Assembly (NCBI GenBank): GCA_013002865.1
Contig: JABDLU010000081.1
Location: 1-56,159 of the forward strand
Source of the DNA: Acidimicrobiia bacterium
GTDB lineage: Bacteria; Actinomycetota; Acidimicrobiia; Spongiisociales; SHLN01
Reading direction: 5' to 3'
Length of the DNA stretch: 56,159 nucleotides
Made by a program: the position numbers and the translations under genes. The notes under the pieces are model-generated. The model was given only the letters and a program-made list of their open reading frames with translations. It was not told the origin of the DNA and ran no database searches. Of the stretch, positions 1,677 to 27,803 are shown piece after piece (the stretch's first letter is position 1; every line of letters begins with the position of its first letter).

Positions 1677-1792
1677 CGTCGCCCGTCGCCCGTCCCCCGT
1701 CGCCAGGAAGAAACTGGCACCCTGACTTGGATTGTGCGACTTAGAGTCGGAATACAGGGGGTATTCGGACCGGCGACCGGCGACCGGCGACC
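1677..1792. repeat. Two heptamer tandem arrays: (CGTCGCC)x4 at 1677-1704 and (GACCGGC)x3.5 at 1768-1792
   Basis: Read directly; the two arrays are near reverse complements; first starts 4 bp after the stop at 1672. Confidence 0.85.
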
Positions 1793-2075
1793 TCGGAAAT
1801 CCGGAGGATTTCCGAAAAGACCAAAGGGCGCCCCGAGGGAGGCGCCCCTTGCTCGTCTACAGGCCCCTCGGCGCCGGCGGTTGGTCCGGCGTCCTCGGCA
1901 CTCCGCCTGTGAACTATCAGCCGACGGTAGTGGCAATTCCGCGCGACCGCCACTCTGAGCGGTGGTGTCTTTTCGCGTTCCGTAGCAGATTTTCGCGTTC
2001 TCATACGGCCGGCTGGAACAGGGGGCGGCCGGCGGACGTTGTTTAGATGAATCAGCCCAGGGGTACCATTCACAC

Positions 2076-2951
2076 ATGAACAACAATCTCAAGACCGTCG
2101 GTTTGCTGGCGGCGCTCGGTGCCGTCATCGTCCTCGTTGGCCAGACGCTCGGTGGCACCAGCGGGGCCGTCATCGCCCTCGTCATTGCCGGCGTTCTGAA
2201 CTTCGGGATGTACTTCTTCTCTGACAAGCTGGCGTTGCGCGCCTCCGGCGCCCGGCCGCTCGAAGAGGGAGAGCTCCCAGAGGTGTGGTCCATCGTGTCG
2301 AAGCTGGCCCTGATGGAGAACATGCCGATGCCGAAGCTGTACTACATCGACTCCCCGCAGCCCAATGCCTTCGCCACCGGGCGCAGCCCAAAGCACGCCG
2401 CAGTGGCCGTCACCGGCGGGATTCTCCAGTTGATGTCGAACGAGGAGCTGGAGGGCGTCCTGGCCCACGAGCTGGCCCACGTGCGCAACCGGGACATCCT
2501 GATCGGGACGATTGCAGCCACCATGGCGGCGGCGCTCTCGATCTTCGCCCGAATGGCGATGTGGGGTGCCCTGGGCGGACGCCGGGACAACAACAACCCG
2601 CTCGGCGGGATCATCGCTCTGGTGAGCGTCATCCTTGCCCCGCTGGCTGCCATGATCATCAAGCTCGCCATCACCCGGGCCCGGGAGTACCAGGCCGACC
2701 GCACGGGGGCGCAGATCACCGGGCAGCCGCTGGCTCTGGCCAGTGCGCTCCGCAAGCTCGAAGCCGGGACCTCCCGTATCCCGATGAACGTCAACCCGGC
2801 CGTTGCCCCGCTCTACATCGCCGATCCGTTGAAGGCCTTCGGCGGCCGGCGCGATGGGGGTGGATCACTCCGCAAGCTGTTCTCCACCCACCCACCTATC
2901 TCCGATCGCGTGGCCCGGCTCGAGGAAATGGCGAGCCCGTTCAGTAGCTGA
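2076..2951 (+). CDS. htpX: Zinc metalloprotease HtpX (M48)
   Basis: PNAFATG, HELAH zinc motif, REYQAD, STHPP; TACCAT -10 box 6 nt before ATG. Confidence 0.95.
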   Translation: MNNNLKTVGLLAALGAVIVLVGQTLGGTSGAVIALVIAGVLNFGMYFFSDKLALRASGARPLEEGELPEVWSIVSKLALMENMPMPKLYYIDSPQPNAFATGRSPKHAAVAVTGGILQLMSNEELEGVLAHELAHVRNRDILIGTIAATMAAALSIFARMAMWGALGGRRDNNNPLGGIIALVSVILAPLAAMIIKLAITRAREYQADRTGAQITGQPLALASALRKLEAGTSRIPMNVNPAVAPLYIADPLKAFGGRRDGGGSLRKLFSTHPPISDRVARLEEMASPFSS

Positions 2952-3111
2952 GAGAACGCTGAGAACGCATGCGTGCCGACGCATGCAGATTGCTGTACTG
3001 TTCCCGTGCCGCTGCCGATAGGCAGGGAAGTGGCGTTCGACTGATAAAGGGGAACTCGGTCGCTCACCGCGTGTCATAGACAACGGAAGCAACACGGAGT
3101 TCTCCAGCGAG

Positions 3112-3804
3112 ATGAACGCTCTGACGACAACGCCGCCTGCAGTTCCTACTGCTGGGGCCCACGAACCCGCCGACCACTTTCACGTCGTCCTTCCCAAGCT
3201 GTGGTCGATGGCCAGGCATGCGCTGCCGAACATCCTCGAAGGCACGGTCTGGCCGTTCGCCATCTTCTACGTCTTTCTCTTCGCCACCAACGTCTGGGGT
3301 GCGCTGCTGGCGGCACTCGCCTACAGCTATATCGGCGTGGCCCGGAGGCTCATCAAGGGCCAGCGAGTCAGCGGATTGCTCGCCCTGACGACCATCACGC
3401 TCACCGTTCGCACCATCCTCGGCCTGGCATCCGGAAGCGTGGTCGTGTATTTCCTGCAGCCCAGCCTCGCTAAGGCCGCCTTGGCCGTCGCTCTGCTGTT
3501 GTCGCTGACCAGGGCCGAGCCGCTGCTCGTCAAGGTCGCTCGGGACTTCGTGCCGCTGTCCGACGAGATGATGGAGCGGCCGTGTGTGCGTCGGTTTTTC
3601 GTCCACGCCACCGTGCTGTGGGTCGTGCTGCTGGTCGTTCACTCCGGCCTCGCCACCTACGTTCTGCTCAACGAAAGCGTCGGCTACTACGTGGCGTTCA
3701 AGTCGGTGCTCAACCTGGTCGTCAAAGGCGGCGGAATCGGACTCTCGTTCGCCTGGTTTGTCTACATCGCCCGCCGCAACGGCATGAAGGTGTCGTTCGC
3801 GTAG
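3112..3804 (+). CDS. Multi-pass membrane protein (VC0807/DUF3159-like)
   Basis: About 6 hydrophobic helices; 'GSVVVYFLQP' and 'S...PL...A.DF.PL' pattern. Confidence 0.6.
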   Translation: MNALTTTPPAVPTAGAHEPADHFHVVLPKLWSMARHALPNILEGTVWPFAIFYVFLFATNVWGALLAALAYSYIGVARRLIKGQRVSGLLALTTITLTVRTILGLASGSVVVYFLQPSLAKAALAVALLLSLTRAEPLLVKVARDFVPLSDEMMERPCVRRFFVHATVLWVVLLVVHSGLATYVLLNESVGYYVAFKSVLNLVVKGGGIGLSFAWFVYIARRNGMKVSFA

Positions 3805-3808
3805 GAAG

Positions 3809-3878
3809 GTCGACCGTCGACTGTCGACTGTCAACGGCCAGAAGCTGCTTGCTGCTTGCTGATAGCTGATAGCTGACG
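3809..3878. repeat. Heptamer arrays GTCGACY/GTCAACG x4 and GCTGCTT/GCTGATA x5
   Basis: Starts 4 bp after the stop at 3804. Confidence 0.8.
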
Positions 3879-3921
3879 GAGATCACGGATCCGTAACCAG
3901 CAACTAACCTCTTTGGCTCAC

Positions 3922-4003
3922 GGTGGGATGCCCGAGCGGACAAAGGGAGCAGACTGTAAATCTGCCGGCACAGCCTTCGGAGGTTCAAATCCTCCTCCCA
4001 CCA
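3922..4003 (+). tRNA. tRNA-Tyr(GTA), CCA not encoded
   Basis: GGTGGGA/TCCCACC acceptor stem, GCAGA-CT-GTA-AA-TCTGC anticodon arm, long variable arm, GGTTCAAATCC T-arm. Confidence 0.95.
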
Positions 4004-4066
4004 CGGCAACCCGGCTTCGCCGGGTTGCTTGCGAGTTCGGCTCCGCCGAACTCGTAGCGATGTCAG

Positions 4067-4150
4067 TCCCCCGGGCGAGCGCAGCGAGCGGGGGAGGCAA
4101 GGAGGGGGGTGGGCAACCGTGCGGGTTGCTGAGCGCGTTCCTGTGCTCCT
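4067..4150 (+). repeat. ~84-bp dispersed REP/MITE-like repeat, copy 1
   Basis: Matches the reverse complement of 11641-11723 with 6 substitutions and 2 small indels (manual alignment). Confidence 0.85.
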
Positions 4151-4186
4151 TAGTCGCGAGCTCTGACGCGCGCCTACCCTCCAGTC

Positions 4187-4612
4187 ATGATCGAAGGGTT
4201 TGCGGTCGTCGAGCGGGTTCCGGTGTTGTGGGGCGACATGGATGCGTTCGGGCACGTCAACAACACCCGGTTCATCCGCTGGTTCGAGACCGCCCGCATC
4301 GCCCACTTCAGGCGGGTCGGGATCAAGACGGCCGAGGCAGTCGGAATCGCCCCGATCCTCGCTCACGTCAGTTGTGACTTCTTGTCACCCGTCGACTTTC
4401 CCGCCGACATCCTGGTTGGGGCCCGGACCACCAAGCTGGGAACCACCAGCATGATCCACGAATATGTCGTCGCACGAGCCGACAATCCGCAGCAGCCCGT
4501 GGCAAAGGGAACCGGCGTGATCGTCATGTACGACTACGACGCCGCCGAGAAAGCACCCATCCCCGAGGATCTGAAACAACGAATTCGAGATTTGGATGGG
4601 GATTCGCTGTAG
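4187..4612 (+). CDS. Acyl-CoA thioesterase (4HBT/YbgC hot-dog family)
   Basis: WGDMDAFGHVNN motif; TACCCT -10 box 6 nt before ATG. Confidence 0.9.
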   Translation: MIEGFAVVERVPVLWGDMDAFGHVNNTRFIRWFETARIAHFRRVGIKTAEAVGIAPILAHVSCDFLSPVDFPADILVGARTTKLGTTSMIHEYVVARADNPQQPVAKGTGVIVMYDYDAAEKAPIPEDLKQRIRDLDGDSL

Positions 4613-4621
4613 GCGTCGGGG

Positions 4622-4814
4622 AGTTGCAGGTTGCGAGGAACCCGAAGGGGTTCCCGGCATCGGGCATCGGGCATCGGGCATCGGGCATCAGGGAGTTGCA
4701 GGTTGCCAGTTGCAAGTTGCAGGTCAGACTCGGGCATCGGCGTCGGGCTCGGGGGACGGGGGACGGGGGACGGGTGACTGGTGACTGGCGACTGGCGACT
4801 GGCGACCGGCGACC
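4622..4814. repeat. Compound heptamer array: AGTTGCA, CGGGCAT, and CGGGGGA->CTGGCGA series
   Basis: CGGGCAT-type x5 (4654-4688), AGTTGCA-type x4 (4694-4721), nine in-register units at 4750-4812. Confidence 0.9.
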
Positions 4815-4864
4815 TCTCGCCACGCGAGAACGGTGACTATCCTCATCCCCGCTCAATTGCGAGT

Positions 4865-4936
<72 letters not shown>

Positions 4937-4937
4937 C

Positions 4938-5012
4938 GGCGGCGTAGCTCAGACTGGTTAGAGCGCTCGGCTCATAATCGAGAGGTCGGTGGTTCAAGTC
5001 CACCCGCCGCTA
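4938..5012 (+). tRNA. tRNA with CAT anticodon (probably elongator Met), CCA not encoded
   Basis: GGCGGCG/CGCCGCT stem, CTCGG-CT-CAT-AA-TCGAG arm, GGTTCAAGTCC. Confidence 0.9.
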
Positions 5013-5033
5013 CGGACAAGAGAGGTCAAAGTC

Positions 5034-5195
5034 ATGCCATCCCAGAAACGACCGGTCATCACCCTTGCGTGTGAAGTGTGCAAGGAACGCAACTACGTGA
5101 CCAACAAGAACAAGACGAACACGCGCGACCGGCTGGAGCTGAAGAAGTTTTGCAACCGGTGCCGAAACCACACGCCCCACAAAGAGACCCGCTAA
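5034..5195 (+). CDS. rpmG: 50S ribosomal protein L33 (Zn-binding C+ type)
   Basis: [13 protein letters not shown]...[21 protein letters not shown]. Confidence 0.97.
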
Positions 5196-5214
5196 TGGGG
5201 CAGGTCCCGGCACG

Positions 5215-6072
5215 ATGAGCGGGGACCTCACCGATCTGGTCGGACGCACCTACGGGCCATTCCACCTGCGCACCTCCGTTGAGAAGGTAGAGGAGTTCGT
5301 CATCGCTACGGGCGACGATCCCGGCCGATGGGAGTTCCATGCTCCGCCCGGATTCGCGGCGGTTGCGCTGTTCAAGTCGGCACCCGCCTTCTTCGAGGAC
5401 GAGGACGCCGCCGACTACGCCCGAACGCTGGTGCACGTCGATCAGACCTTCCGTTGGCATCGCCCTCTGCCCCAGGAGATCGACGCCCGGGTCATCGGTG
5501 AAGTGGAAAGCGTGCGCCACCGCGGCGAGATGTTCTTCGTCACATTCACCACCCGAACCGAGGACGGGGACGGGGGAGTGTTTCAGGAGGCGTCGTCGAC
5601 ATTCCTCATGACCGAAGGATCCTTGCCCAAGGAACGCGTCACGGAAAAGCCGGAACCGGCCTGGGACGAGCGGGCCGAGAACGACCTGCCGACCGCCGTC
5701 GACCTGCCGGCCGTGGGTGAGTCGCTGCCTCCGATGTTGAAGTCGGCCAGCCGGGCCGACCTGGTTCGCTACGCAGGTGCCACCCGGGATTGGAATCCCA
5801 TCCACTGGGACCACAAGGCGGCGGTACAGGCCGGGTTGCCCGGGATCATCGTTCATGGGCTGCTCATGGCCTCCTGGGTCACCCAAGCGGCGGGCCGAAC
5901 CCTCTCCGGCCCTCTGCCGCTGGCGAGCATGCGTCTCCGGTTCCGACAGGCGCTGCGGCCGGCGTTGCAGGCGGAGGTCCTGGCCGAGGTCAAGGCGCCC
6001 GATGCTCTAACCTGCATCATCCGCACCGGGGATATTGACCTGGTGACAGCCGATGCGATGCTCGGAGGCTGA
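5215..6072 (+). CDS. Double hot-dog MaoC-type (R)-hydroxyacyl dehydratase, HadA-HadB-like fusion
   Basis: N-half LVHVDQTFRWHRP (MaoC_dehydrat_N-like); C-half YAGATRDWNPIHWD...AGLPGIIVHG hydratase-2 motif; lies after rpmG as hadAB does in actinomycetes. Confidence 0.8.
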   Translation: MSGDLTDLVGRTYGPFHLRTSVEKVEEFVIATGDDPGRWEFHAPPGFAAVALFKSAPAFFEDEDAADYARTLVHVDQTFRWHRPLPQEIDARVIGEVESVRHRGEMFFVTFTTRTEDGDGGVFQEASSTFLMTEGSLPKERVTEKPEPAWDERAENDLPTAVDLPAVGESLPPMLKSASRADLVRYAGATRDWNPIHWDHKAAVQAGLPGIIVHGLLMASWVTQAAGRTLSGPLPLASMRLRFRQALRPALQAEVLAEVKAPDALTCIIRTGDIDLVTADAMLGG

Positions 6073-6077
6073 CGAAG

Positions 6078-6638
6078 ATGGCCGACCGCAACCCGATCGA
6101 TTCCGCCGAGCTGCTCGATCGCGCCCGGGGCGGTGACGAGGGGGCATTCAACGAGCTGGTGCGGAGCCATCAGCACGAGGTTTTCTCCCTTGCCTTCCGG
6201 TTGCTCGGCAACTACGAACTGGCCGCCGACGCTGCGCAGGAGACATTCATCCGGGCCTGGCGGGCGCTTCCCCGGTTCCGCGGTGACGCCGCCCTATCGA
6301 CCTGGCTGCACCGCATCACCGTCAACACCAGCTGGACCCTCGGCAAGCGGGCTCGCCGCCACTCGGCCGCCACCCTCGACGAAGCAATCCTGCTCGACGA
6401 CGCCTCGGCCCCGACACCCGAGTCCTCGGCGGAGACCGCCGAGCTGGGCGGACGGCTCCGGGCGGCGGTCTCCGAACTGCCCGATCCGCAGCGGGCGGTC
6501 GTCGTTCTCAAGGACATCTACGGCTGGTCCCACGCCGAGGTGGCCAAGGCGCTGGACATCAGCGTCACCGCCGCCAAGGTGCGTCTGCACCGGGCCCGGC
6601 GGCGGCTGAAGGAGAAACTGTGGCGGGAAGTGGACTGA
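6078..6638 (+). CDS. ECF RNA polymerase sigma factor
   Basis: DAAQETFIRAW, STWLHRITVN (region 2); region 4 HTH ending KVRLHRARRRL. Confidence 0.92.
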   Translation: MADRNPIDSAELLDRARGGDEGAFNELVRSHQHEVFSLAFRLLGNYELAADAAQETFIRAWRALPRFRGDAALSTWLHRITVNTSWTLGKRARRHSAATLDEAILLDDASAPTPESSAETAELGGRLRAAVSELPDPQRAVVVLKDIYGWSHAEVAKALDISVTAAKVRLHRARRRLKEKLWREVD

Positions 6639-6946
6639 GCATCGGCTGCGTTGTGCGCTCGCACCTGCTGGCGGCCGACCCGGGCCGTCACGACGCCCAC
6701 ATCGACGAATGCCTTCGCTGCCAGGCGGAGGCCGCCCGCTATCGCACGATGCTGCGCAGCCTGGCGGCTCTGCAGGACACCGTCGTTCCTGCACCGGCCG
6801 GACTGGCGTCGGCCGTCGGGGCCCACATTGGCGGGCTCGACCACGACCCCAGGAAGGCCGCCGGGCGAGAGGTGGCCGTCGCGGCGGCCGGCGTAGTAGC
6901 GGTGGCGAGTGCGCTGGCGCTGTGGCGCCGCACGATCAGCGCCTAA
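6620..6946 (+). CDS. Zinc-binding (ZAS) anti-sigma factor with C-terminal TM helix; start uncertain
   Basis: HIDECLRC = HxxxCxxC motif; overlaps the sigma stop; hydrophobic C-terminus. Confidence 0.75.
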   Translation: MAGSGLSIGCVVRSHLLAADPGRHDAHIDECLRCQAEAARYRTMLRSLAALQDTVVPAPAGLASAVGAHIGGLDHDPRKAAGREVAVAAAGVVAVASALALWRRTISA

Positions 6947-7036
6947 GCTGACCGACCGGCAATACGTTGGCGTCGCGTGTGCTTATACTCGGGCCGTCTC
7001 GCAGGGCACTCGCCCTAGGATTCGGCTTCACAACAG

Positions 7037-7110
7037 AGGGGTGTAGCTCGAATTGGCAGAGCGCCGGTCTCCAAAACCGGAGGTTGTGGGTTCGAGTCCC
7101 ACCGCCCCTG
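7037..7110 (+). tRNA. tRNA-Trp(CCA), 3' CCA not encoded
   Basis: AGGGGTG/CGCCCCT stem, CCGGT-CT-CCA-AA-ACCGG arm; usual position before secE. Confidence 0.95.
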
Positions 7111-7170
7111 CCGGCCTGCGTGGCGTGAAGAGTGGGTTCCCGTACCGGAGCCCCAGGTATAGAGGAACTG

Positions 7171-7479
7171 ATGAACCGAGAACTCCGTCGACAGCAAGCC
7201 CGCCAGGAGCGGCTCGACAAGAAGCAAGGCAAACCCGGCCGGCAGGCTGCGGCGCAGCGCGCCGCCGGCAAGGCCGTCGGCGAGGGCAAGGAGCGCCGCG
7301 GCCTCCGCACCTATCTGCATGAAGTGCGTCAGGAGCTCTCCAAGGTGGCATGGCCGGATCGTCAGACCCTCACGACCTACACCGCAGTCTCTCTCATCGC
7401 CACCATCGCGCTGACCGCTTATACCGCCGGGCTGGACTTCATCTTCAAGCAAGCCTTCGTCGACCTGATTCTGCAATGA
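7171..7479 (+). CDS. secE: Preprotein translocase SecE
   Basis: EVRQELSKVAWP motif plus one TM helix; between tRNA-Trp and nusG. Confidence 0.92.
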   Translation: MNRELRRQQARQERLDKKQGKPGRQAAAQRAAGKAVGEGKERRGLRTYLHEVRQELSKVAWPDRQTLTTYTAVSLIATIALTAYTAGLDFIFKQAFVDLILQ

Positions 7480-8444
7480 CGAGTATGGAAGATCAGGCTG
7501 TGGGCGCCACCGAGGCGCCGGCTGAGGACGCCGCCGAGAACACGGAGTCCGTCGAGGCTGTTCCCGCCGGGGTCGATCCCGATGCGGCCGACGCTCCCGT
7601 CGCCGAGGACGGTGATCCCGGGGGTCTCCTGGCAGCCGCCTTTGCATCGGTTGGGCTGACCTCGAGCGACAAGCTCGATGAGGTCCTGTCCAAAGAGGAG
7701 CAGGAGGCGGCCGATGCCGCCGCCGCCGAGGCCGCCGAGGCCGCCGACGAAGCGGAAGCCGACCAAGCCGACGAAGCTCCGGCAGAAGCCGCGGAAGACG
7801 CTCCCGAGGAGCCGGCCGCCGAGTCCGACGCTGAGGAAGCCGACGAAGAGGAAGAAGAGGAGCCGGAGGAACCAGTCGACACCGGTCCAGCCAGCCCGTA
7901 CGACCTCCCGGGCGACTGGTTCGTCATTCACTCGTACTCCGGCTACGAAAACAAAGTCAAAGCCAACCTCGAGACCCGCATCCACTCCATGCACATGGAG
8001 GGAGAGATCTTCGACGTGCACATCCCGATGGAGGATGTGGTCGAGATCAAAGGCGGCCGCAAGGTCACCGTTCCCAAGAAGGTCTTTCCCGGCTACATCC
8101 TCGTGCGCATGTACCTGTCGGACGACTCCTGGTTCGCGGTGCGCAACACACCGGGCGTGACCGGCTTCGTCGGATCGGGCACCAAGCCGGTCCCGCTGTC
8201 GCGACGGGAAGTCGAGCGGATTCTGGGGGTCAAGAAGGAGGAGGCCGTCGGCAAGGCGGCTCCACGCTTCCAGCCCGCCTGGGGCGTCGGGGAAACCGTG
8301 CGGGTCACCGACGGGCCCTTCGCCGACTTCAACGGTGTCATCGAGGAGATCAACCTCGATCAGTCGAAGGTGCGCGTGCTGGTTAACATCTTCGGCCGCG
8401 AGACCCCCGTCGAGCTCAACTTCGAACAAATCGTCAAGCTCTAG
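7476..8444 (+). CDS. nusG: Transcription factor NusG with ~140-aa acidic N-terminal extension
   Basis: WFVIHSYSGYENKVK, FPGYILV, VRNTPGVTGFVG, KOW domain; ATGA overlap with secE. Confidence 0.95.
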   Translation: MTSMEDQAVGATEAPAEDAAENTESVEAVPAGVDPDAADAPVAEDGDPGGLLAAAFASVGLTSSDKLDEVLSKEEQEAADAAAAEAAEAADEAEADQADEAPAEAAEDAPEEPAAESDAEEADEEEEEEPEEPVDTGPASPYDLPGDWFVIHSYSGYENKVKANLETRIHSMHMEGEIFDVHIPMEDVVEIKGGRKVTVPKKVFPGYILVRMYLSDDSWFAVRNTPGVTGFVGSGTKPVPLSRREVERILGVKKEEAVGKAAPRFQPAWGVGETVRVTDGPFADFNGVIEEINLDQSKVRVLVNIFGRETPVELNFEQIVKL

Positions 8445-8456
8445 CAGAGGCATCCC

Positions 8457-8885
8457 ATGGGACGGAAGAAACTGATGGCAGTGATCAAGCTGCAGGTGCC
8501 GGCCGGCCAGGCCAGCCCGGCACCGCCGGTCGGTCCTGCGCTCGGTCAGCACGGCGTCAACATCATGGACTTCGTGCAGGCGTATAACGCCCAGACCGCC
8601 GACCAGACCGGGACGATCGTCCCGGTGGAGATCAGCGTCTATGAGGATCGCAGCTTCACGTTCATTACCAAGACCCCACCGGCCGCGGTGCTGTTGCGCC
8701 AGGCCGCCCGGGTCCCCAAGGGATCACCTGAGCCCCACCGGGAGAAGGTGGCCTCGGTGACCCGAGCCCAGGTCAAGGAGATCGCCGAAATCAAGATGCC
8801 CGACCTCAATGCCAACGACATCGAGGCGGCCATGAAGATCGTTGAGGGAACCGCCCGCTCGATGGGCTTTACCGTCAGCGGCTAG
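8457..8885 (+). CDS. rplK: 50S ribosomal protein L11
   Basis: [31 protein letters not shown]. Confidence 0.98.
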
Positions 8886-8894
8886 CCAGACAAC

Positions 8895-8923
8895 GTGGGA
8901 GGCCGTTGGGCCGCTTGCACCAC
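8895..8923 (+). promoter_or_regulatory. Probable L1-binding autoregulatory RNA site upstream of rplA
   Basis: GTGG-GAG-GCC...GGC...A-CCAC resembles the 23S rRNA L1-binding mimic; directly before the AAGGAG SD. Confidence 0.65.
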
Positions 8924-8937
8924 AAGGAGACACGTCA

Positions 8938-9654: not shown

Positions 9655-9704
9655 CCCAACGAGACCCGGGGCCGCCAACCGGCGGGGACCGGTAATGTGC
9701 AAGC

Positions 9705-10106: not shown

Positions 10107-10113
10107 TTAACCT
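10084..10113 (+). promoter_or_regulatory. Putative housekeeping-sigma promoter for rplJL
   Basis: TTGACG-N18-TAACCT. Confidence 0.5.
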
Positions 10114-10246: not shown

Positions 10247-11089
10247 ATGGCCAGACCGGAGAAGGTCGCCGTTGTCGACGAGATCAAAGAGAAGCTGGAG
10301 GAGGCCCAAGCCATCTTCGTGACCGAGTACCGGGGTCTATCGGTCGGCCAGCAGCAGCAGTTGCGCCGCTCACTTCGCAAAGCGGAAGCTGAGTACAAGG
10401 TCTTCAAGATGACCCTGGCGCGCCGGGCTGCCGAGGAGGCCGGCATGACCGACCTGCTCGTCTGGCTCGAGGGACCGACCGCGATTGCCTTCACGACCGG
10501 CGACCCGGTCCCGGCCGCCAAGAGCTTGAAGGAATTCGCCGACAATCATGACCAGCTCGTCCTCAAGGGCGGCCTGCTGGCGGGGGCCACGCTCGACGCC
10601 GCCGGCGTGCGGCAGCTGGCCGACGTCGAGCCACGCGAAGTCCTGCTCGCCAAGCTGGCGGGGGCGATGAAGGCTCCGATGGCGAACCTGGCCGGGATGA
10701 TGACCGCCGTGCTACGACAGCCGGTCACCGCCATGCAGCAACTGCTCGAGAAGCGTGAGACCGATCCGGCGTTCGCGGCCGAACCAACTGAGGGGCCTGC
10801 GGCTGCGGACGAGCCTGCGGCTGAGGAGCCTGCGGCTGCGGACGAGCCTGCGGCTGAAGAGGAGCCTGCGGCTGAAGAGGAGCCTGCGGCTGAAGAGGAG
10901 CCTGCGGCTGAAGAGGAGCCTGCGGCTGAAGAGGAGCCTGCGGCTGCCCCGGCTGAGGAGGCTGCGGCTGAGGATGCTCCGGCCGAAGAGCCTGCGGCGG
11001 AGGATGCTGCGGCGGAGGATGCTGCGGCGGAGGATGCTGCGGCGGAGGATGCCGAAGCTGCCACTGATTCTGAAGATTCCGACAAGTAG
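10247..11089 (+). CDS. rplJ: 50S ribosomal protein L10 with ~100-aa acidic repeat tail
   Basis: [36 protein letters not shown]; AAGGAG SD. Confidence 0.97.
10856..11053 (+). repeat. Coding tandem repeats in rplJ: 18-bp GAAGAGGAGCCTGCGGCT x5 and 15-bp GCGGCGGAGGATGCY x4
   Basis: Copies at 10856-10945 (EEEPAA, identical) and 10994-11053 (AAEDA). Confidence 0.95.
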
Positions 11090-11516: not shown

Positions 11517-11636
11517 CCGACTGTCGACTGTCGACGGTCAACCGTCAACGGCCGAAGAACGTGAAGGACGTCACCTGTGGGTGGCGTCTTTCTCGTTGCC
11601 GGTTATCGGTCGCCGGTCGCCGGTCGCCGGTCACCC
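11517..11636. repeat. Heptamer arrays GTCGACN/GTCAACN (11517-11552) and GTCGCCG-type x6 (11595-11636)
   Basis: First array continues out of the 11-bp hairpin at 11498-11522 and ends GTCAACGGCC like the 3809 array. Confidence 0.85.
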
Positions 11637-11640
11637 ACCC

Positions 11641-11723
11641 AGGAACACAGGAACGCGCCAAGCAACCCGAAGGGTTGCCCACCCCCCTCCTTGCCTCCCC
11701 CACTCGCTGGCGCTCGCGGGGGA
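11641..11723 (-). repeat. ~84-bp dispersed REP/MITE-like repeat, copy 2
   Basis: Reverse complement aligns to 4067-4150; contains GCAACCC-GAA-GGGTTGC and CTCCCCC...GGGGGAG palindromes. Confidence 0.85.
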
Positions 11724-11730
11724 GGTAATT

Positions 11731-11838
11731 CTGACGCCTGACGCCTTCTGACTGGCAACTTGGAACCTGCAACCGGCAACTTGCCGATTGCCGATTGCCG
11801 ATAGCTGATTGCCGATAGCTGATTGCTGATTGCTGATT
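11731..11838. repeat. Heptamer arrays CTGACGC x2, GGCAACT-type x5, GCYGATW x8
   Basis: Eight in-register GCYGATW units at 11783-11838, ending 1 bp from the minus-strand stop at 11840. Confidence 0.9.
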
Positions 11839-11839: not shown

Positions 11840-12058
11840 CTACCGCACCGTGGCGAACCGCAGCATGGCGACGAAGAAGAGGACCACGCCGACGGTGATG
11901 AGGGCTCCGCCGGCGATGGGACCGGGGAGGGCGCCGAAGTCGTTGGAGTAGCACGTGGTGAGGCTGCGAGACAGCGACACGGTCTGGCACCCGATGACCT
12001 CGATGCCACGGAAAATCAGGGCAAACCCGCCTGCCATTGCCACAAAAGACAGGAGCAT
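11840..12058 (-). CDS. Small two-TM hypothetical membrane protein; start uncertain
   Basis: Two hydrophobic helices around a C-x11-C loop. Confidence 0.5.
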   Translation of the reverse strand: MLLSFVAMAGGFALIFRGIEVIGCQTVSLSRSLTTCYSNDFGALPGPIAGGALITVGVVLFFVAMLRFATVR

Positions 12059-21083: not shown

Positions 21084-21322
21084 CCGAGGATCTCGATCTC
21101 GTAGTTCTCCATGACGGGATTGGCGAGCATCTTCTCGCACATGGCCCGCACCGCCGACAGCACGTACTCCTGGTCGCGCCCGGGCAAAGACACCTCGATG
21201 GTTCGATTGACGCGAACCCCGTCGACGTCGCCGTAGCCGAGGTCGACGAGTGCCCGCTGGATGGTGGCGCCCTCCGGATCGGCGATTTCCGGCCGGCGGG
21301 TAATCGTCACCAGGGCTCTCAT
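21080..21322 (-). CDS. purS: FGAM synthase subunit PurS
   Basis: DPEG..I, MCEKMLANPVMENY. Confidence 0.93.
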   Translation of the reverse strand: MRALVTITRRPEIADPEGATIQRALVDLGYGDVDGVRVNRTIEVSLPGRDQEYVLSAVRAMCEKMLANPVMENYEIEILG

Positions 21323-22188
21323 CCGGTGCCGTCCGCGAACGATCGGCCGGTGATGCGCTCGAATGCCTCGGTATAGCGGGCGGCGGTGCCGTCACGGACC
21401 TCATCGGGCATGGCCGGGGCGGGCGGCGAATGGTCCCAGCCGGTGGAATCCAGCCAGTCCCGCACGTATTGCTTGTCGAAGGACGGCATGGTCTTGCCGG
21501 GTTGGTACTCGTCGGCCGGCCAATAGCGGCTCGAGTCGGGCGTGAGCACCTCGTCAATGAGCAGCAACTCCCCATCGTCCCAGCCGAATTCGAACTTGGT
21601 GTCGGCGATGAGCAGCCCCTGGGCGGCGGCCGCTTCGGCGGCCCGTTGGTATATGTCGATCGAAAGTGATCGGAGGCGCTCGTATAGCTCGTGGCCGACG
21701 AGATCACGGGCTCCGGCCTCGGTGAGGTTCTCATCGTGGCCGGTTTCCGCTTTGGTGGCCGGGGTGAAGATCGGCTCGGTGAGCTTTTCCCCCATCTTCA
21801 ATCCGTCGGGGAGGTGCTCGGTAGTCGGACCGCCACCGGCCTGGTACTCACGCCAGCTGCTGCCGTATAGGTAGCCCCGCACCACGCATTCCATAGGGAT
21901 GACCTCCGCCCGGCGCACGATCATGGCTCGCCCGTCCAGCACGAGCCGCTCGGCCTGATCCAGCCCCAGGCCGCCGAGTTCGGTGGTGATGAAGTGGTTG
22001 GGGGTGTCCAGGTAGTCGAACCAGTGCAGCGATACGCCGGTGAGAACGCGGCCCTTGTTGGGAATGGCGTCCGGGAGTATGACGTCGTACGCGGAAATGC
22101 GGTCCGTAGCTACGAACAGAAGGCGATGCTCGTCGATCTCATAGATTTCGCGAACTTTGCCCGAAGCGAGATGTGTCAGCGCCAACAC
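21319..22188 (-). CDS. purC: SAICAR synthase
   Basis: [44 protein letters not shown]. Confidence 0.96.
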
Positions 22189-22224
22189 GCTGGCGATTGT
22201 AGGTCGGTGGGTCGCGACCTCTGG

Positions 22225-22698
22225 TTATCCGCGGTGCACCTCGCGAAATGTATCTTTCGCCAGCTGGTCGCGGTGGGCGGCGAGCTGCTTGCGGAGGCTG
22301 TCATCAGTTATCGCCAGGATGGATACGGCGAGCAGGGCGGCATTGCCGGCGCCATCAACGGCCACCGTTGCCACCGGAATTCCCGAGGGCATCTGGACGG
22401 TGGAGAGCAGCGCGTCGAGCCCATCCATCGACGCGCTCAGCGGCACTCCGATGACCGGCAAGGTCGTCCGGGCGGCCATCACTCCCGCCAGGTGGGCCGC
22501 CTTGCCGGCACCGGCGATGATCACACCGAGGTTGTTCTCTTCGGCACCGTCGATGTACGCCAGCGCCTGATCGAGCGACTTGTGCGCCGAGGCAACCAGG
22601 ACATCGTGGGGGATGCCGAATCGCTCGAGGGTCTCGGCGGCCTTCTGCATGATGGGCAGATCCTTCTCCGAGCCCATCAGGACGGCGACCTTTTTCAT
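22225..22698 (-). CDS. purE: AIR carboxylase / N5-CAIR mutase
   Basis: [39 protein letters not shown]. Confidence 0.95.
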
Positions 22699-22723
22699 TC
22701 GTGACTCCTTGTTCGTCGATCGA

Positions 22724-23971
22724 TTACTGGGCGATGTCGGTCCGGTACTGCTTGCCGGAGAAGCTGATCCGGGCGGCCCGATCGTAGGCACGATCGCGGG
22801 CTGCATCGAGATCGGGGCCGAGGCCGACGACGCTGACAACCCGGCCCCCGGCGGTCTCGGTGCGCAACCCGACCCGGCGGGTGGCGGCATGAAAGACCAG
22901 GGTCCCGGGCTCGTCCTCGTCCAGGCCGCGGATCTCGTCACCCAGCACCGGCGCCTCGGGATATCCCTTGGCGGCCAGGACCACGTTCACGGCCATCTGG
23001 CCGGACCAGTGCAGCTCGGTGCCGGCGGCGTTGCCGTCGGTGCATGCCGCGATGACGTCCAACAGGTCGCTCTCGAGTGTCGGCAGCAATGCCTGGGTCT
23101 CCGGATCGCCGAGCCGGCAATTGAACTCCAGCACCTGGGGCCCGGCCTCGGTGAGGACGAGTCCGGCGTAGATGAAACCGGTGTACGTCTCGCCATCCGC
23201 GGCCAGGGTCTCGAGCACCGGAGTGATGACCGTGTCCACGATGCGTCGGACGAAGGTGTCTCCGTGACCCGGTACGGGCGTGTAAGTCCCCATCCCACCG
23301 GTGTTCGGTCCACGATTGCCGTCTTCGAGCCGCTTGTAGTCCCGGGCGGTTCGCAAGCCGAGGACGGTGGTCCCGTCGCATAGCCCAAAGACACTGATCT
23401 CCTCGCCGTCGAGGAAGTCTTCGATGACGACCCGGTTCCCGGCCGGGCCGAACCGGCCAGAAAAGCAGTCGGCGACCCAGCTAGCAGCCTCGCCGAGCTG
23501 CGATGTCACCAGGACACCCTTGCCGGCCGCCAGGCCGTCGGCCTTGACGACATACGGGGGCTTTCGCACCGACAAGTGGTCCAGGGCCGACTCGGCATCG
23601 GCGAACACCTCGGAGGCGGCGGTCGGAACGCCGGCCCGGTGCATGATGCTCTTGGCGAAAGACTTCGACGTTTCCAGCCGGGCGGCCGACCGGCTCGGCC
23701 CGAAGATCGGGATCCTGGCGGTCCGCACGGCGTCGGTCACGCCGGCGGCGAGAGGGGCCTCCGGACCGACGACGACGAGGTCGATCGATTCCCGAAGTGC
23801 CAGGTTGACAACGGCGGCCGGATCCGCCGGATCGATGGCGTGGGTCGGCCCGATCGTGGCGAGACCGGGATTGCCGGGTGCGGTGTGGAGCTGGTCGAGG
23901 CGGGAGCTCTGGGCGAGCTTCCAACCTATGGCGTGCTCGCGGCCACCTCCGCCGAGAAGCAGAACGTTCAC
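22724..23971 (-). CDS. purD: Phosphoribosylamine-glycine ligase
   Basis: GGGGREHA, APGNPG, VGPEAPL, VKADGLAAGKGV, GPNTGGMG, EFNCRLGDPE. Confidence 0.97.
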   Translation of the reverse strand: MNVLLLGGGGREHAIGWKLAQSSRLDQLHTAPGNPGLATIGPTHAIDPADPAAVVNLALRESIDLVVVGPEAPLAAGVTDAVRTARIPIFGPSRSAARLETSKSFAKSIMHRAGVPTAASEVFADAESALDHLSVRKPPYVVKADGLAAGKGVLVTSQLGEAASWVADCFSGRFGPAGNRVVIEDFLDGEEISVFGLCDGTTVLGLRTARDYKRLEDGNRGPNTGGMGTYTPVPGHGDTFVRRIVDTVITPVLETLAADGETYTGFIYAGLVLTEAGPQVLEFNCRLGDPETQALLPTLESDLLDVIAACTDGNAAGTELHWSGQMAVNVVLAAKGYPEAPVLGDEIRGLDEDEPGTLVFHAATRRVGLRTETAGGRVVSVVGLGPDLDAARDRAYDRAARISFSGKQYRTDIAQ

Positions 23972-24099
23972 GGTGCGAGCATAAAGCACCCGGGGGAGCC
24001 CTCCGCCGTGCCGGCGGGACACAGCGTCCCCTAGCCTCGGTGGATGTCGATGAGGCCAACCCCAATGGCACGGACCGCCGGTTGCGGTGAGGACCAGCC

Positions 24100-26016
24100 G
24101 TGACTGGAAGCCTGGGGGTGGACGTCGGCGGCACGTTCACCGACGTCGCCGCCTGGGATGGCTCGACGCTGTCAACCGCCAAGGTGCCGAGTACCCCCGA
24201 CGATCAGAGTCGCGGCGTGGTCGCCGGTGCCGCCGCCTTCACGAACGACGTCGGCCGCTTCTTCCATGGAACCACCGTCGCGACTAATGCCCTCCTGGAA
24301 CGCGCCGGGGCCACCTGCGCGTTGGTCACGAGCCCCGGATTCGAGGATGTCCTCGAGATCGGCCGGCAGGACCGGCCGGCGCTCTACGACCAGCAGGTCG
24401 GCCGCCCGGCCCCGCTCGTCCCGGCGGACCGGCGCGTGACCCCGGATGCCCTCGCCGACCTCGACGACGGGATCGAAGCGGTCGCCGTGTCGCTCCAATA
24501 CTCCTTCGAGGACCCCGCAGAGGAGCTCGCCATCCGCCGGGCACTCCACGCCGCCTGCCCGGGGGTGCCGGTTTCGCTATCCAGCGAAGTCGCCCCCGAG
24601 TTCCGTGAGTTCGAACGGGCATCGACCACCGTGCTCAACGCGTACGTGCAGCCCATCATGGCCCACTACCTGCTGCGCCTGTCTGAGGCCAGCAGCCGGG
24701 CCGGACTGCCCGGCCACGTGCTGGTCATGCAGTCGTCGGGTGGCCTCATTTCGGCGGCCGGTGCCAGCCGCCACCCGGCCGCCGCCCTGCTGTCCGGACC
24801 CGCCGGTGGTGTTGTCGCCGCTGCCGAGCTCGGACGGTCGCTCGGTCGTCCGAGCCTCATCTCGTTCGACATGGGCGGAACCTCAACCGACGTGTGCCGG
24901 ATCGAGGACGGGCGGCCCGAAATCTCGAACGAGCGCCTCATCGACGGTTATCCGTGCCGTCTCCCTGCGGTGGCCGTCCACACGGTGGGGGCCGGGGGCG
25001 GCAGCCTCGGATGGATCGACTCCGGTGGGGCGCTCCGGGTCGGCCCGCGCAGCGCCGGCGCACAGCCGGGCCCGGCGTGTTACGGGAGGGGCGGGGTCGA
25101 GCCGGCCGTGACCGATGCCAACCTGGTGCTTGGTCGCATCAACCCGGCCGGACGGCTCGGATCTGACGTCGTGCTCGAGGCCCGGGCCGCCCACGCTGCT
25201 ATCTCCCGGATCGGTGAGCCGCTCGGGCTCGACAACCCGGCGGCTGCCGTCGGGATGATCGAGGTCGTCGAAGAAGTGATGGCGGGCGCCCTGCGAACGG
25301 TCTCGGTCGAGCAGGGAGCCGATCCACGCGAGGCCACGCTCGTGTCATTCGGCGGTGCGGGCGGGCTGCACGGCTCCTCGCTCGCCCGCCGGCTCGACAT
25401 GGCCGGGATGATCGTGCCGCTCCACGCCGGCGTGTTCTCCGCATTCGGGCTGCTGCTCAGCCCGCCGCGCCAGGACTGGTCGAGATCGGTGTTGACCACC
25501 GAGGAGTCGGTGGTTGACGATGCTCTGCGCAGCCTCGGTGCCGGTGCAACCGACCAGATGACTGCCGATGGCCTCGACACCAGCGTGATCCGCCACAGCG
25601 TGGACATGCGATACGTCGGACAATCCCACGAGTTGACGGTGCCGTACGAGCCCGGGTCGGGCTGGAACGGCCTGGCCGCCGATTTCCACGCCCTCCACGC
25701 CACCCGTAACGGCTTCTCGCGTCCCACCGACCCCGTTGAGGCGGTGACCGTCCGGGTCGAGGCGGTGGGGGAGCCGGCCCTCCGATGGGGCGATTTGCCG
25801 CCGATCGCACCCACCGGCACCCCTGAGCGAGGCTCGCGACCGGTCCAGGGCGGCCGAGGCTCGGTCGATGCCACGGTCTGGTGGCGACCGGCCCTGCGGC
25901 CCGGGGCGGAAGTCATCGGTCCGGCCGTCATCGAGGAGCCTGAGGCAACCACCTTCCTCGGTCACGGAGAACGGGCCGTCGTGCATGACGGCGGTGCCCT
26001 GGTGGTGGACTGGTGA
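24100..26016 (+). CDS. Hydantoinase A / 5-oxoprolinase family, ATP-binding subunit
   Basis: DVGGTFTD, HGTTVATNALLE, LSGPAGG, DMGGTSTD, GAGGGS, GPACYGRGG. Confidence 0.93.
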   Translation: MTGSLGVDVGGTFTDVAAWDGSTLSTAKVPSTPDDQSRGVVAGAAAFTNDVGRFFHGTTVATNALLERAGATCALVTSPGFEDVLEIGRQDRPALYDQQVGRPAPLVPADRRVTPDALADLDDGIEAVAVSLQYSFEDPAEELAIRRALHAACPGVPVSLSSEVAPEFREFERASTTVLNAYVQPIMAHYLLRLSEASSRAGLPGHVLVMQSSGGLISAAGASRHPAAALLSGPAGGVVAAAELGRSLGRPSLISFDMGGTSTDVCRIEDGRPEISNERLIDGYPCRLPAVAVHTVGAGGGSLGWIDSGGALRVGPRSAGAQPGPACYGRGGVEPAVTDANLVLGRINPAGRLGSDVVLEARAAHAAISRIGEPLGLDNPAAAVGMIEVVEEVMAGALRTVSVEQGADPREATLVSFGGAGGLHGSSLARRLDMAGMIVPLHAGVFSAFGLLLSPPRQDWSRSVLTTEESVVDDALRSLGAGATDQMTADGLDTSVIRHSVDMRYVGQSHELTVPYEPGSGWNGLAADFHALHATRNGFSRPTDPVEAVTVRVEAVGEPALRWGDLPPIAPTGTPERGSRPVQGGRGSVDATVWWRPALRPGAEVIGPAVIEEPEATTFLGHGERAVVHDGGALVVDW

Positions 26017-27557
26017 CGATCGATGCGGTGACGCTCGAGGTGGCGAGGAATCGACTCGCTCAGATCGCGACCGAAATGGGAGTGATCCTGCGCCGCACCG
26101 CCTATTCGCCAAACATCAAGGAGCGGGCCGATTGCTCGGCCGCGATATTCGTGCCATCGGGCGAGATGCTCGCCCAGGCCGAGCACATCCCGGTCCACCT
26201 CGGCTCGATGCCGGCCTCGGTCGCCGCGGTAATCGACCGATTTAGAGATGGCGTGGAGCCGGACACCCAGTACGCAGTGAACGACCCGTTCGCCGGAGGC
26301 ACCCATCTCAACGATTTGACCCTGGTGCGGCCGGTGTTCCACGAGGGCGGTCTCATCGGGTGGGCGGCCAACCGGGCTCACCACGCCGATGTCGGCGGCG
26401 AGGCCCCCGGGTCGATGCCCGCCCATGCCACGACCGTCGACCAGGAAGGGCATCGGGTTGCTCCGGTCATCTGCGTGCGGGACGGCAGCTGGCTGCCGGA
26501 GTTTCTCGAGCCGTTCCTGGCCGCCACCCGGACTCCTGCCGAGCGACGGGGTGATCTGTCCGCACAACTTGGCGCCAACGAAGCCGGGGCCAGGCGGCTC
26601 ACCGAGGTGGTCGCCCGGGAAGGCCCCGGCCGGTTTCGGGACGTCACCGCAGCCTTGCTCGACTACGGGGAGCGGCGCATGCGGTCTGCCCTCGATGGTT
26701 TGCCGGATGGCGAGTACCGCTTCACCGATTTCATGGAGTTCGGCGGGGCCCTTGTCCCGATACGGGTCGCGGTCACGATCGAGGACGATGGGCTGCACGC
26801 CGACTTCGCCGGAAGCGCTCGCCAGGTTGCCGGAAACATCAACGCCGTCGAGGCCGTCACCCGGAGCTGCCTGTATTACGCCGTGCGAGTGGCTACCGAT
26901 CCGACGATTCCGGCCAACGGCGGCTGCTATCGGCCCCTCTCGCTGTCCGTGCCGCCGGGCTCCATCGTCGGCGCCGCGCCACCCGCCGCCGTCGCGGCCG
27001 GCAACGTCGAGACCAGCCAGCGCATTGCCGACGTCTTGCTCGGCGCCCTCGCCGCCGCCGCTCCCGACCGGGTGCCGGCCGCCGGCCAGGGAACGATGAA
27101 CAACATCCTCATCGGCAACGACGACTTCGCCTACTACGAGACGGTGGCGGGCGGCCAGGGTGGGAGCCCGTTCGGGCAGGGCTCTTCGGGGATCCAGACC
27201 GGAATGACCAACACGAAGAACACCCCGGTTGAAGCGCTCGAGTCCCACTACCCGCTGCGGGTTGTCCAGTACGGGCTGCGGCGGGGGAGTGGCGGCGCCG
27301 GCCGTCATCGGGGCGGCGAGGGCATCGTCCGGGAGATCGAGTTTCAGACGGCCGCCACCTTGTCGTTGATGGGGGAGCGGCGCGTGCTGCCCCCATGGGG
27401 GCTGGCGGGCGGCTTCCCTGGCAAGCAGGGCGAAGACTGGCTGATCCGCTCCGGCGCCGCTCCCGAGCGGCTGCCCGGCAAAGTGACCGTCGACGTCGGC
27501 CCCGGCGACCGGCTTCTGGTGAAAACCCCCGGCGGCGGCGGCTGGGGAGCTGAGTAA
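26013..27557 (+). CDS. Hydantoinase B / 5-oxoprolinase family subunit
   Basis: AYSPNIKERADCS, HIPVHLGSM, NDPFAGGTHLND, HHADVGG, TPGGGGWG; GTGA overlap. Confidence 0.93.
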   Translation: MTIDAVTLEVARNRLAQIATEMGVILRRTAYSPNIKERADCSAAIFVPSGEMLAQAEHIPVHLGSMPASVAAVIDRFRDGVEPDTQYAVNDPFAGGTHLNDLTLVRPVFHEGGLIGWAANRAHHADVGGEAPGSMPAHATTVDQEGHRVAPVICVRDGSWLPEFLEPFLAATRTPAERRGDLSAQLGANEAGARRLTEVVAREGPGRFRDVTAALLDYGERRMRSALDGLPDGEYRFTDFMEFGGALVPIRVAVTIEDDGLHADFAGSARQVAGNINAVEAVTRSCLYYAVRVATDPTIPANGGCYRPLSLSVPPGSIVGAAPPAAVAAGNVETSQRIADVLLGALAAAAPDRVPAAGQGTMNNILIGNDDFAYYETVAGGQGGSPFGQGSSGIQTGMTNTKNTPVEALESHYPLRVVQYGLRRGSGGAGRHRGGEGIVREIEFQTAATLSLMGERRVLPPWGLAGGFPGKQGEDWLIRSGAAPERLPGKVTVDVGPGDRLLVKTPGGGGWGAE

Positions 27558-27600
27558 ACCGAGCTATCCCGCCGGCTGGCGGATGATCGTCTTCATTTTC

Positions 27601-27803
27601 CGTCCCCGGTCCCCCGTTTCCCGTCCCCTGTCCCCCGACCGGCGTCCGGCGACCGGCGACCGGCGACCGGCGACCACTGACCCCCGTCCCCCGTCCCCCG
27701 TCTCCCGACCGGGGAGTCCCCACCGGCGACCGGCGACCGGCGACCACTGACCACTGACCACTGACCACTGACCACTGACCACTGACCACTGACCACCGAC
27801 CTC
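27601..27803. repeat. Compound heptamer array of 29 in-register units (CGTCCCC / CGACCGG / TGACCAC families)
   Basis: Manual 7-bp phasing from 27601 to 27803 needs no gaps; TGACCAC x7 perfect at 27748-27796. Confidence 0.93.

Follow-up and report, generated by a model that had tools for sequence, protein, structure and literature searches.

Tandem arrays of seven-nucleotide units occupy the intergenic spacers of the 56,159-nt contig JABDLU010000081.1 (the window), and across the draft genome from which it comes they follow a single directional rule. The window is the whole of contig C209 in the 224-contig, 2.92 Mb assembly GCA_013002865.1 (66.4% GC; G000 below) of an uncultured bacterium of the Acidimicrobiia. 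All array units are variants of one oriented word, R-T-C-R-S-C-N, and the strand that carries T-C runs, with few exceptions, 5' to 3' from a gene or other functional unit into the spacer. Because that strand points away from each flank, a spacer reads T-C type first and G-A type second. The arrays very probably belong to the heptanucleotide class of long simple-sequence repeats, of the kind of GGGAATC in Xanthomonas, the STRR-type GGGGA(C/T)T in Nostoc and TAACTGA in Beggiatoaceae. The best explanation of the whole, and one that seems on balance probable if only somewhat, combines this repeat class with 7-nt slippage in place and an outward polarity of the T-C strand that is caused by a mutational asymmetry.

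The period stands out genome-wide. A detector that scores matches at distance p (+1/-4, net score of at least 10) found 379 arrays of period 7, and 7, 58, 5 and 50 arrays of periods 5, 6, 8 and 9, respectively; Tandem Repeats Finder (TRF) reported 637 rows at period 7 versus 99 at period 8. Together the arrays cover 12 kb; their median length is 28 nt, and the longest has 107 nt. All but 30 (349/379) lie outside the gene calls, which are crude, and 23 of the 30 "inside" arrays are within 150 nt of the start of an over-extended open reading frame (ORF). Arrays within 100 nt of a contig end number 41/379, versus 5.8 expected, and affect 33 of the 448 contig ends. They are a main cause of assembly breaks, the true arrays may be longer than those assembled, and the counts given here are lower bounds. 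Contigs from four public DNA runs mostly end at arrays as well, and one of the runs supplies the sole usable allele, a 7-nt deletion at 3844 within the array at 3843-3876. DNA near-identical to G000 is present in beach-sand and marine-sediment metagenomes; the 21 runs listed include no RNA run.

The word behind the period is equally well established. Arrays were classed as RTY, or T-C type, when a GTC, GTT or ATC core lies on the plus strand, and as RAY, or G-A type, when the complementary core does. The 379 arrays divide into 167 RTY, 169 RAY, 38 with both cores and 5 with no core, and the core-less share (5/379) compares with 54% predicted for random heptamers of the same composition. A profile of 325 units, aligned on the core so that position 2 is T by construction, counts 228 G and 97 A at position 1, 284 C and 41 T at position 3, 289 purines at position 4 and 322 G or C at position 5; C prevails at position 6, and position 7 is unconstrained. 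The 325 units include 40 distinct ones as listed, so that dozens of variants exist, arranged in blocks whose units differ by one or two bases. A stop triplet occurs on the T-C strand of 15/336 arrays and on the complement of 159/336. A separate observation concerns the array ends: on the spacer side, roughly one-fifth of T-C arrays finish in a CCAGA(G/A) motif, which is seen in the congener G006 too (for example, in its L4 tail) and which is non-polar away from arrays.

The original prediction, made from the window alone, held that RTY units always precede RAY units within an interval. Genome-wide, neighboring arrays no more than 300 nt apart take this order in 53 cases and the reverse order in 2 (binomial p = 8.6e-14), so that the reverse, far from being equally common, makes up 2/55. 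The ratio is 21:2 at spacings up to 50 nt and 55:3 at spacings up to 500 nt. The prediction was also right that GTCGAC-type units, which contain both cores, are uninformative. GTCAAC-type units contain both cores too and yet are polar, the GTC strand leaving the gene in 11 cases and entering it in 1. The strand symmetry of the layout, which the prediction also noted, is a tautology for any inverted pair; the order has content because two strand-symmetric layouts are possible and only one is used.

The same polarity appears when arrays are read relative to genes. For arrays that have one called gene boundary no more than 40 nt away and the other at a distance of 100 nt or more, the 5'-to-3' direction of the T-C strand is away from the gene in 55 versus 9 cases at stops, which bears out the earlier expectation of RTY-type units on the sense strand after stop codons, and in 22 versus 3 cases at starts. 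Stop-adjacent arrays are 2.6 times as common as start-adjacent ones (64 vs 25). Family by family, the ratio of leaving to entering is 28:1 for GTCGCCG, 17:4 for ATCAGCA, 16:2 for GTCAGTG, 11:1 for GTCAACG and 7:0 for GTCCCCC; the small GACCCCC family contradicts the gene rule, 4:1. The best predictors of orientation are T-C versus G-A (126:22) and R-T-C (121:21). Other candidate predictors failed, namely G-richness (47:50), purine content (68:91) and a generic R-Y-Y-R pattern (78:68). Seeding of the arrays by a compositional bias of the spacers was rejected too, as array-free spacers give 4545:4526 for T-C versus G-A at stops and 5824:5538 at starts, and with the arrays masked no strongly asymmetric 5- or 6-mers are left. 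The link to replichore that had been raised as a possibility did not appear, since orientation has no association with the GC skew of the contig (p = 0.49). G-A-type arrays are in modest excess on the dominant gene strand (odds ratio 0.36, p = 0.004), an excess whose meaning would depend on the positions of the origin and terminus.

The arrays of the window and the associated elements are as follows (coordinates, strand of the T-C word or of the element, description).

1677-1704, plus: RTY, about 4 copies of CGTCGCC, starting 5 nt after the stop of ORF 1082-1672
1768-1792, minus: RAY, 3.6 copies of GACCGGC, upstream of the M48 peptidase gene (2076-2951)
3809-3832, orientation uninformative: GTCGACT with both cores, 5 nt after the stop of ORF 3112-3804
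3843-3876, minus: RAY, GCTGATT, upstream of tRNA-Tyr (3922-4004)
4067-4111: copy of the dispersed Element A
4615-4740, plus: RTY block of AGTTGCA and GGTTGC units, a GGAACCC...GGGTTCC hairpin, five GGCATCG units and again AGTTGC-type units, directly after the thioesterase stop (4612)
4750-4814, minus: RAY block of GGGGGAC and GTGACTG, then GACTGGC and GACCGGC, upstream of the tRNA-Thr promoter region
11518-11552, plus: GTCGAC and GTCAAC units, downstream of the rplL stop and of a hairpin
11598-11635, plus: RTY, GGTCGCC
11640-11730, minus: spacer center with one reversed copy of Element A that carries an inserted hairpin
11731-11838, minus: RAY block of CTGACGC, GGCAACT, TTGCCGA and GCTGATT, ending 2 nt short of the minus-strand gene's stop at 11840
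27596-27637, plus: RTY, CCGTCCC type, 39 nt after the hydantoinase B stop (27557)
27636-27675, minus: RAY, CGACCGG, in the first copy of a duplicated RTY/RAY module of about 70 nt
27676-27707, plus: RTY, CCCCCGT, in the second copy of the module, creating one of the two reversed steps of the genome
27722-27801, minus: RAY, ACCGGCG then 8.6 copies of GACCACT, ending about 45 nt upstream of a conserved rpoB promoter-like CTTGACC...TATCTT
42771-42796, plus: RTY, GCCGGTC, within the translated C-terminal tail of L4
42844-42884, minus: RAY, GACAGCC and GACTGCC, also within the L4 tail and directly ahead of the start of the overlapping rplW
45575-45765, strand not assigned: S3 tail, GTC-type (GTCGCCA, GTCCCCA) first, then GAC-type (GACCCCC, GACCGGC twice), degenerate and under the detector threshold
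55911-55958, plus: RTY, seven copies of GGTCAGT, 9 nt after the stop of map (methionine aminopeptidase, 55153-55902)

All the units named in the prediction are present where it placed them and are listed by TRF, and the rplD tail (42771-42884), the minus-strand gene ending at 11840 and map fit the layout it described. Its account of 27596-27801 was right in that the interval begins with RTY and ends with RAY; the actual series is RTY, RAY, RTY, RAY, by way of the duplicated module (TRF period 70, 2.0 copies). The gene rule also holds upstream of tRNA-Tyr, tRNA-Thr and the rpoB promoter, and for this reason the polarity is not a matter of translation or of 5' untranslated regions (UTRs).

Two of the window's operon genes carry the pattern into their products, since heptamer arrays encode parts of the C-terminal tails of L4 and S3. 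The L4 ORF (42111-42920) has 269 aa, with the Pfam domain ending at residue 204 and a 65-residue acidic tail beyond; the S3 ORF (44680-45801) has 373 aa, with Pfam domains ending at residue 201 and an acidic tail of about 170 residues. The tail of the 311-aa rplJ (L10) ORF, with its Pfam domain at residues 32-129, is built differently, from in-frame 18-nt and 15-nt tandem repeats of about 9 and about 7 copies (10788-11052). Pfam names for the window genes that neighbor arrays are M48 peptidase, thioesterase, L7/L12, hydantoinase B, L4, L23, S3, L16, adenylate kinase and methionine aminopeptidase. The window has four tRNA genes, and a search of the window against Rfam returned these four and no other match.

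Comparison with relatives demonstrates that the arrays turn over fast among congeners and grow in place. The genomes compared were the congeners G004 (140 kb sampled), G005 (140 kb) and G006 (100 kb, then 333 kb), together with G007. The G005 sample contained no array and the G004 sample 9, whereas 21 turned up in the first 100 kb of G006. The larger G006 sample has 44 arrays in 333 kb, 42 of them with a core; neighboring arrays there keep the order 4:0, and the units differ from those of G000. The G004 arrays mostly lack the R-T-C core (CCACCGC and GGTGGGC types); one G004 pair (L087, 15004-15095) reads GAC type then ATC type, contrary to the rule. Three tandem copies of GTCGCCG occur 53 times in G000, once in G006 and in none of 39 other relatives searched, a tally that includes the unpublished genome G016.

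Orthologous spacers show the growth. In front of the conserved rpoB promoter, a stretch of about 100 nt in G005 is free of arrays, G004 has a degenerate proto-array of three GAC units and G000 has long arrays, and upstream of tRNA-Thr a GACTGGC array is common to G000 and G004. The L4 tails of G000 and G006 carry T-C then G-A arrays in the same place with different units, and the tail of G007 is without heptamers. In the convergent spacer after rplL, G005 has no array, G004 has complementary GTTACCG and CGGTAAC arms round a hairpin, G006 has GTCACCG directly after the stop and G000 has a mosaic; the T-C strand comes first in all three genomes with arrays (G000, G004 and G006). Arrays have arisen independently in one spacer with the same polarity, and 7-nt slippage in place is a well-supported description of their growth.

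The complementary arms of the G004 rplL spacer suggest another reading, in which the arrays are the two arms of hairpins, such as terminator extensions or cruciforms, with one arm mirrored from the other by template switching at a central palindrome. Hairpin elements do occupy many spacer centers in G000, and a stem-loop potential of paired repeats is noted by Rehm et al. 2015 (PMC4692102). In G000, however, the RTY arm matches the complement of the RAY arm no better than shuffled arms do, with a mean best unit match of 3.91/7 versus 4.13 +/- 0.14, and a 7/7 match is found in only 2 of 53 pairs. Mirroring would also account for the inverted pair and not for which of the two orders is taken. 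As a general explanation in G000 hairpin arms are contradicted by these counts, which makes that origin very improbable.

The spacer centers bear on a further alternative, that the arrays are the ends of a mobile element resembling a MITE or REP, or the product of telomere-like templated addition at a break or an inserted piece. Dispersed elements are indeed found in the centers. The commonest is Element A, a sequence of about 70 nt with a G/C-rich 8-bp stem, a 15-nt loop and a purine-rich tail, present at 121 loci in G000. The best copies lie outside the window (e.g., contig C107, 39514-39584; L103:215-285). Many copies are 96-100% identical and some are clustered at a spacing of 120-180 nt. 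Diverged copies occur in 9/13 relatives within the family and in 0/27 genomes outside it, and four Element A clusters searched against Rfam gave nothing at E <= 1. The element is enriched between convergent genes (30/81), and in tandem gene contexts the antisense sense of its arbitrarily chosen orientation prevails 31:13. A second dispersed center element consists of two adjacent hairpins (GGAACCC...GGGTTCC and GGAGTTGC...GCAACTCC) and sits in several spacers between both arms, as at 4641-4658 of the window and at 3444-3486 of contig C100.

The presence of such elements, the 3'-end geometry of the arrays, their on-or-off distribution between congeners and the CAGA cap, which marks the inner end of 54/262 oriented arrays versus 6 for its complement, would all suit a mobile or telomere-like origin. 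Against it, Element A is itself non-polar (36 leaving vs 45 entering) and was rejected as the carrier of polarity, and the arrays that flank it vary from copy to copy, with different units around one and the same center element. Orthologous spacers show stepwise growth in place, as upstream of rpoB and tRNA-Thr. Telomere-like addition predicts one templated unit and a reverse transcriptase; dozens of unit variants are found, and the 89.8%-complete G000 gave no match to a reverse transcriptase (RVT_1, PF00078) or to a Y1/RAYT transposase (PF01797). The suggestion of the original prediction that repeats are added at both ends of a break therefore survives in its geometry, which fits growth of the T-C strand at 3' ends into the spacer, and its telomere-like and inserted-piece forms are unsupported. 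A mobile or templated origin is scarcely credible.

The explanation preferred here may be regarded as a conventional version of that same idea. On this account, slipped-strand mispairing by 7 nt creates, resizes and rewrites the arrays where they stand, in spacer DNA that is dispensable, and an array survives or grows almost only where the T-C strand runs 5' to 3' from a functional unit, whether an ORF end, an ORF start or promoter or a tRNA gene, into the spacer. Expansion would accompany 3'-end extension of the T-C strand toward the interior of the spacer, as when a gap or break is repaired by synthesis that starts from the conserved flanks, and arrays in the opposite orientation would shrink. 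The specific proposal that the polarity comes from a mutational bias in some conserved step of DNA synthesis, as opposed to a function under selection, is tentative and by itself doubtful. An asymmetry at the DNA level is preferred because the order is kept in the operon-internal, translated L4 tail of the S10 operon (in G000 and G006), because polarity of the same sign arises anew in different species and phyla, and because the congener G005 shows no arrays in the 140 kb sampled. The decay of the 7-nt period at array ends is confounded, as a measure of growth direction, by the coding sequence on the gene side.

Several points weigh against this explanation. Breaks, gaps or repair synthesis in the spacers are presumed, and they would have to be concentrated there because breaks in the far longer genes would favor the opposite orientation. 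Strand folding counts on both sides. In triplet repeats a fold-prone strand makes expansion of the nascent strand orientation-dependent, and the T-C strand folds more stably than its complement in 229/336 arrays, less stably in 97 and equally in 10, which favors an asymmetry at the DNA level; asymmetry of RNA folding was nevertheless rejected as the determinant because it fails for the strongly polar ATCAGCA and GTCCCCC families. The gene calls are GC3-based (third-position GC) with 86% coverage, so that some start boundaries may be mis-called; start-side boundaries are the weakest part, each ORF having been begun at the first start codon that follows a stop, and the strand of some calls may be wrong. 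The stop codon within 15 nt of an array is TAG in 49/78 cases versus 34% genome-wide (odds ratio 3.4, p = 1.7e-7), and because TAG is enriched there selection would appear to act at array-stop junctions. Strong stops may be favored if the array that follows supplies no reserve stop in any of the frames; alternatively, TAG may derive from the CAG or TGG of a first degenerate unit.

Expression forms the last of these points. When genes are ranked by ribosomal-protein-like codon usage, post-stop arrays number 7, 18, 30 and 29 per quartile of about 181 genes, a trend that points to transcription or residence time. Gene age confounds it, because GC3 differs between the quartiles as well. Start-side arrays show no trend (13, 10, 13 and 11). 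The post-stop trend would be expected if outward transcription free of ribosomes, reading through past stops and running divergently upstream of promoters, expanded or kept arrays whose T-C strand is the non-template strand. The excess of arrays at stops over starts, the lack of a link to GC skew, and the minus-type arrays before rpoB and tRNA-Thr, which stand upstream of promoters and not in 5' UTRs, also agree with outward transcription. It does not predict the flat start-side counts, and leftward transcription is unexpected inside the S10 operon, where the L4 and S3 tails keep the RTY-then-RAY order. Outward transcription is accordingly held to be improbable as the cause.

A selected function at gene borders has somewhat more to recommend it, although it too is unlikely. 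Under this hypothesis the arrays are oriented binding sites, and the T-C strand is coated by a protein that recognizes one trinucleotide per 7 nt, whether on RNA, single-stranded DNA or double-stranded DNA. An OB-fold or ring protein or a ribbon-helix-helix protein would be a candidate reader, with the effect of insulating, terminating or stabilizing what leaves the gene, a suggestion of the same low standing. A 3-nt core with four free positions at a strict period is arranged like known periodic binding sites, among them the UAG-N4 repeats bound by HutP and the 7-bp heptads of the omega repressor, for which relative orientation matters. Polarity that is sequence-specific and not compositional, background spacers free of T-C/G-A bias, and the more frequent arrays behind genes better expressed by codon usage all fit binding, and MacGregor 2015 (PMC4679880) proposes binding of S1, Csp or CsrA to TAACTGA repeats.

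Binding sites would be harder to reconcile with units that vary at 4/7 positions and between congeners, with the lack of arrays in the G005 sample, and with arrays that stand upstream of promoters and tRNA genes and inside translated protein tails, not just after stops. No candidate protein was identified. Rho was found in G000, G004, G005 and G006, and because it is present in all four genomes, array-rich and array-free alike, it does not discriminate. Two matches to the Rho RNA-binding domain occur in G000, at C31:12977-13192 and at C105:3-140, at the start of a contig; the gene may be split by an assembly break or there may be a second copy. An oriented binding function is nevertheless compatible with the sequence and retains a minor chance of being right, to the detriment of the slippage and mutational-asymmetry explanation favored here.

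The comparison with known systems draws on Rehm et al. 2015 (PMC4692102) and MacGregor 2015 (PMC4679880), and on Mrazek, Guo and Shah 2007 as summarized in both. From Mrazek, Guo and Shah 2007 the two papers report that units of 5-11 nt are over-represented in prokaryotes, that heptanucleotides are the most abundant long simple repeats, that their taxonomic distribution is sporadic with high-GC genomes among the richest, and that polymerase slippage was proposed as their source. G000 agrees in being dominated by period 7, in its high GC and in a slippage origin, and adds to that summary a polarity rule and a shared oriented word.

The heptameric repeats of Rehm et al. come closest. As described there, GGGAATC repeats of Xanthomonas campestris and X. 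axonopodis and GGGGA(C/T)T repeats of Nostoc PCC 7120 are mostly intergenic and lie "almost exclusively" nearer to the 5' neighboring ORF whatever its orientation, at an average of 28 nt versus 160 nt. Paired sites in Xanthomonas are convergent, in 70 and 75 cases, the repeats differ between close relatives and there is no replichore bias. The G000 arrays share the strict 7-nt tandem period, the dispersed and mostly intergenic positions near the 5'-side ORF, the convergent pairs, the variability among relatives and the lack of replichore bias. The leaving strand is the same in Xanthomonas and G000, because GGGAATC read in tandem carries A-T-C. The repeat class and the polarity rule were thus already published in that paper, and G000 is a further example that is real and strong. 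It differs from those repeats in its dozens of unit families, in arms that are not complementary and in a leaving strand that is not G-rich. Unlike the G-quadruplex subclass GGGNATC described there, which is marked by G-tracts on the leaving strand and by a preference for four units, G000 has GTCCCCC leaving genes 7:0, so that the G5 strand enters the gene. G-quadruplex formation cannot be the common cause, because the rule follows the T-C word and not G-richness. In Nostoc, the first 50 kb of plasmid pCC7120alpha hold only 3 arrays, too few for a test of the gene rule; one, a CTTCTGC/CCTCTGC array at 4150-4185 (L106), lies 24 nt after the stop of a gene for a "four helix bundle protein." The STRR repeats, heptamer families of heterocystous cyanobacteria, are of the same kind as those of G000, which is not a cyanobacterium: its RpoB (1115 aa) and RpoC (1304 aa) ORFs are unsplit, and the best-matching named genomes for RpoB, at 59-74% identity, are Actinomycetota and some Bacillota.

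TAACTGA direct repeats are reported in MacGregor 2015 from marine Beggiatoaceae, some Cyanobacteria and Bacteroidetes, as a single unit in mostly 2-6 copies, a few nt from start codons, with 147/170 sets pointing toward the start codon and a role in translation proposed. From that direction it follows that a G-A/A-A-C strand enters the gene in Beggiatoaceae, as the entering strand carries A-A-C and, in tandem, G-A-T. The TAACTGA repeats resemble the G000 arrays in their gene-relative orientation and their sporadic occurrence among relatives, and the complement of TAACTGA is an ATCAG-type word, comparable to the ATCAGCA family. Unlike those repeats, the G000 arrays are found more often at stops than at starts, and a number of them stand in front of promoters. 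A quite improbable reading is that R-T-Y plus four free bases at a 7-nt period is a signal shared across phyla and recognized at gene borders by conserved machinery. Function would then explain why one and the same strand leaves the gene in genomes that are Actinomycetota-like, gamma-proteobacterial, cyanobacterial or from Bacteroidota; the arrays may serve replication, repair or transcription as a polar barrier or as a loading site and may, for example, insulate genes. If so, a congener would have or lack arrays according to whether it has gained or lost the reader.

Elements of the REP, BIME, REPIN and MITE types are likewise abundant intergenic mosaics, often at the 3' ends of genes, with hairpin elements in both orientations. 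Unlike REP and REPIN, the G000 arrays have no palindromic unit, no complementary arms and no matching RAYT (Y1) transposase, and are tandem microsatellites whose sequence is not conserved between loci. Unlike a MITE, which has conserved terminal inverted repeats and a conserved interior, they differ from copy to copy around one center element (target-site duplications were not searched for systematically).

Among the long simple repeats of bacteria, heptamer microsatellites are the commonest, and their origin and strict gene-relative orientation lack an explanation; when one literature collection was searched in full text for bacterial repeats of this unit length, the only relevant papers were Rehm et al. 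2015 and MacGregor 2015, and no published account of why the arrays are polar came to light. Relative to the systems above, G000 contributes T-C and not G-richness as the predictor, many unit families, non-complementary arms, presence and absence within one genus, independent origin and the enrichment of TAG. It allows the rule to be stated more cleanly and excludes hairpin arms, compositional seeding, replichore direction and a mobile or telomere-like origin. In practical terms, arrays of this class break short-read assemblies and lengthen the predicted L4 and S3 tails. With array-rich species (G000 and G006), an array-poor one (G004), one with none in its sample (G005) and independent origins in one spacer, the genus offers a natural experiment on the cause.

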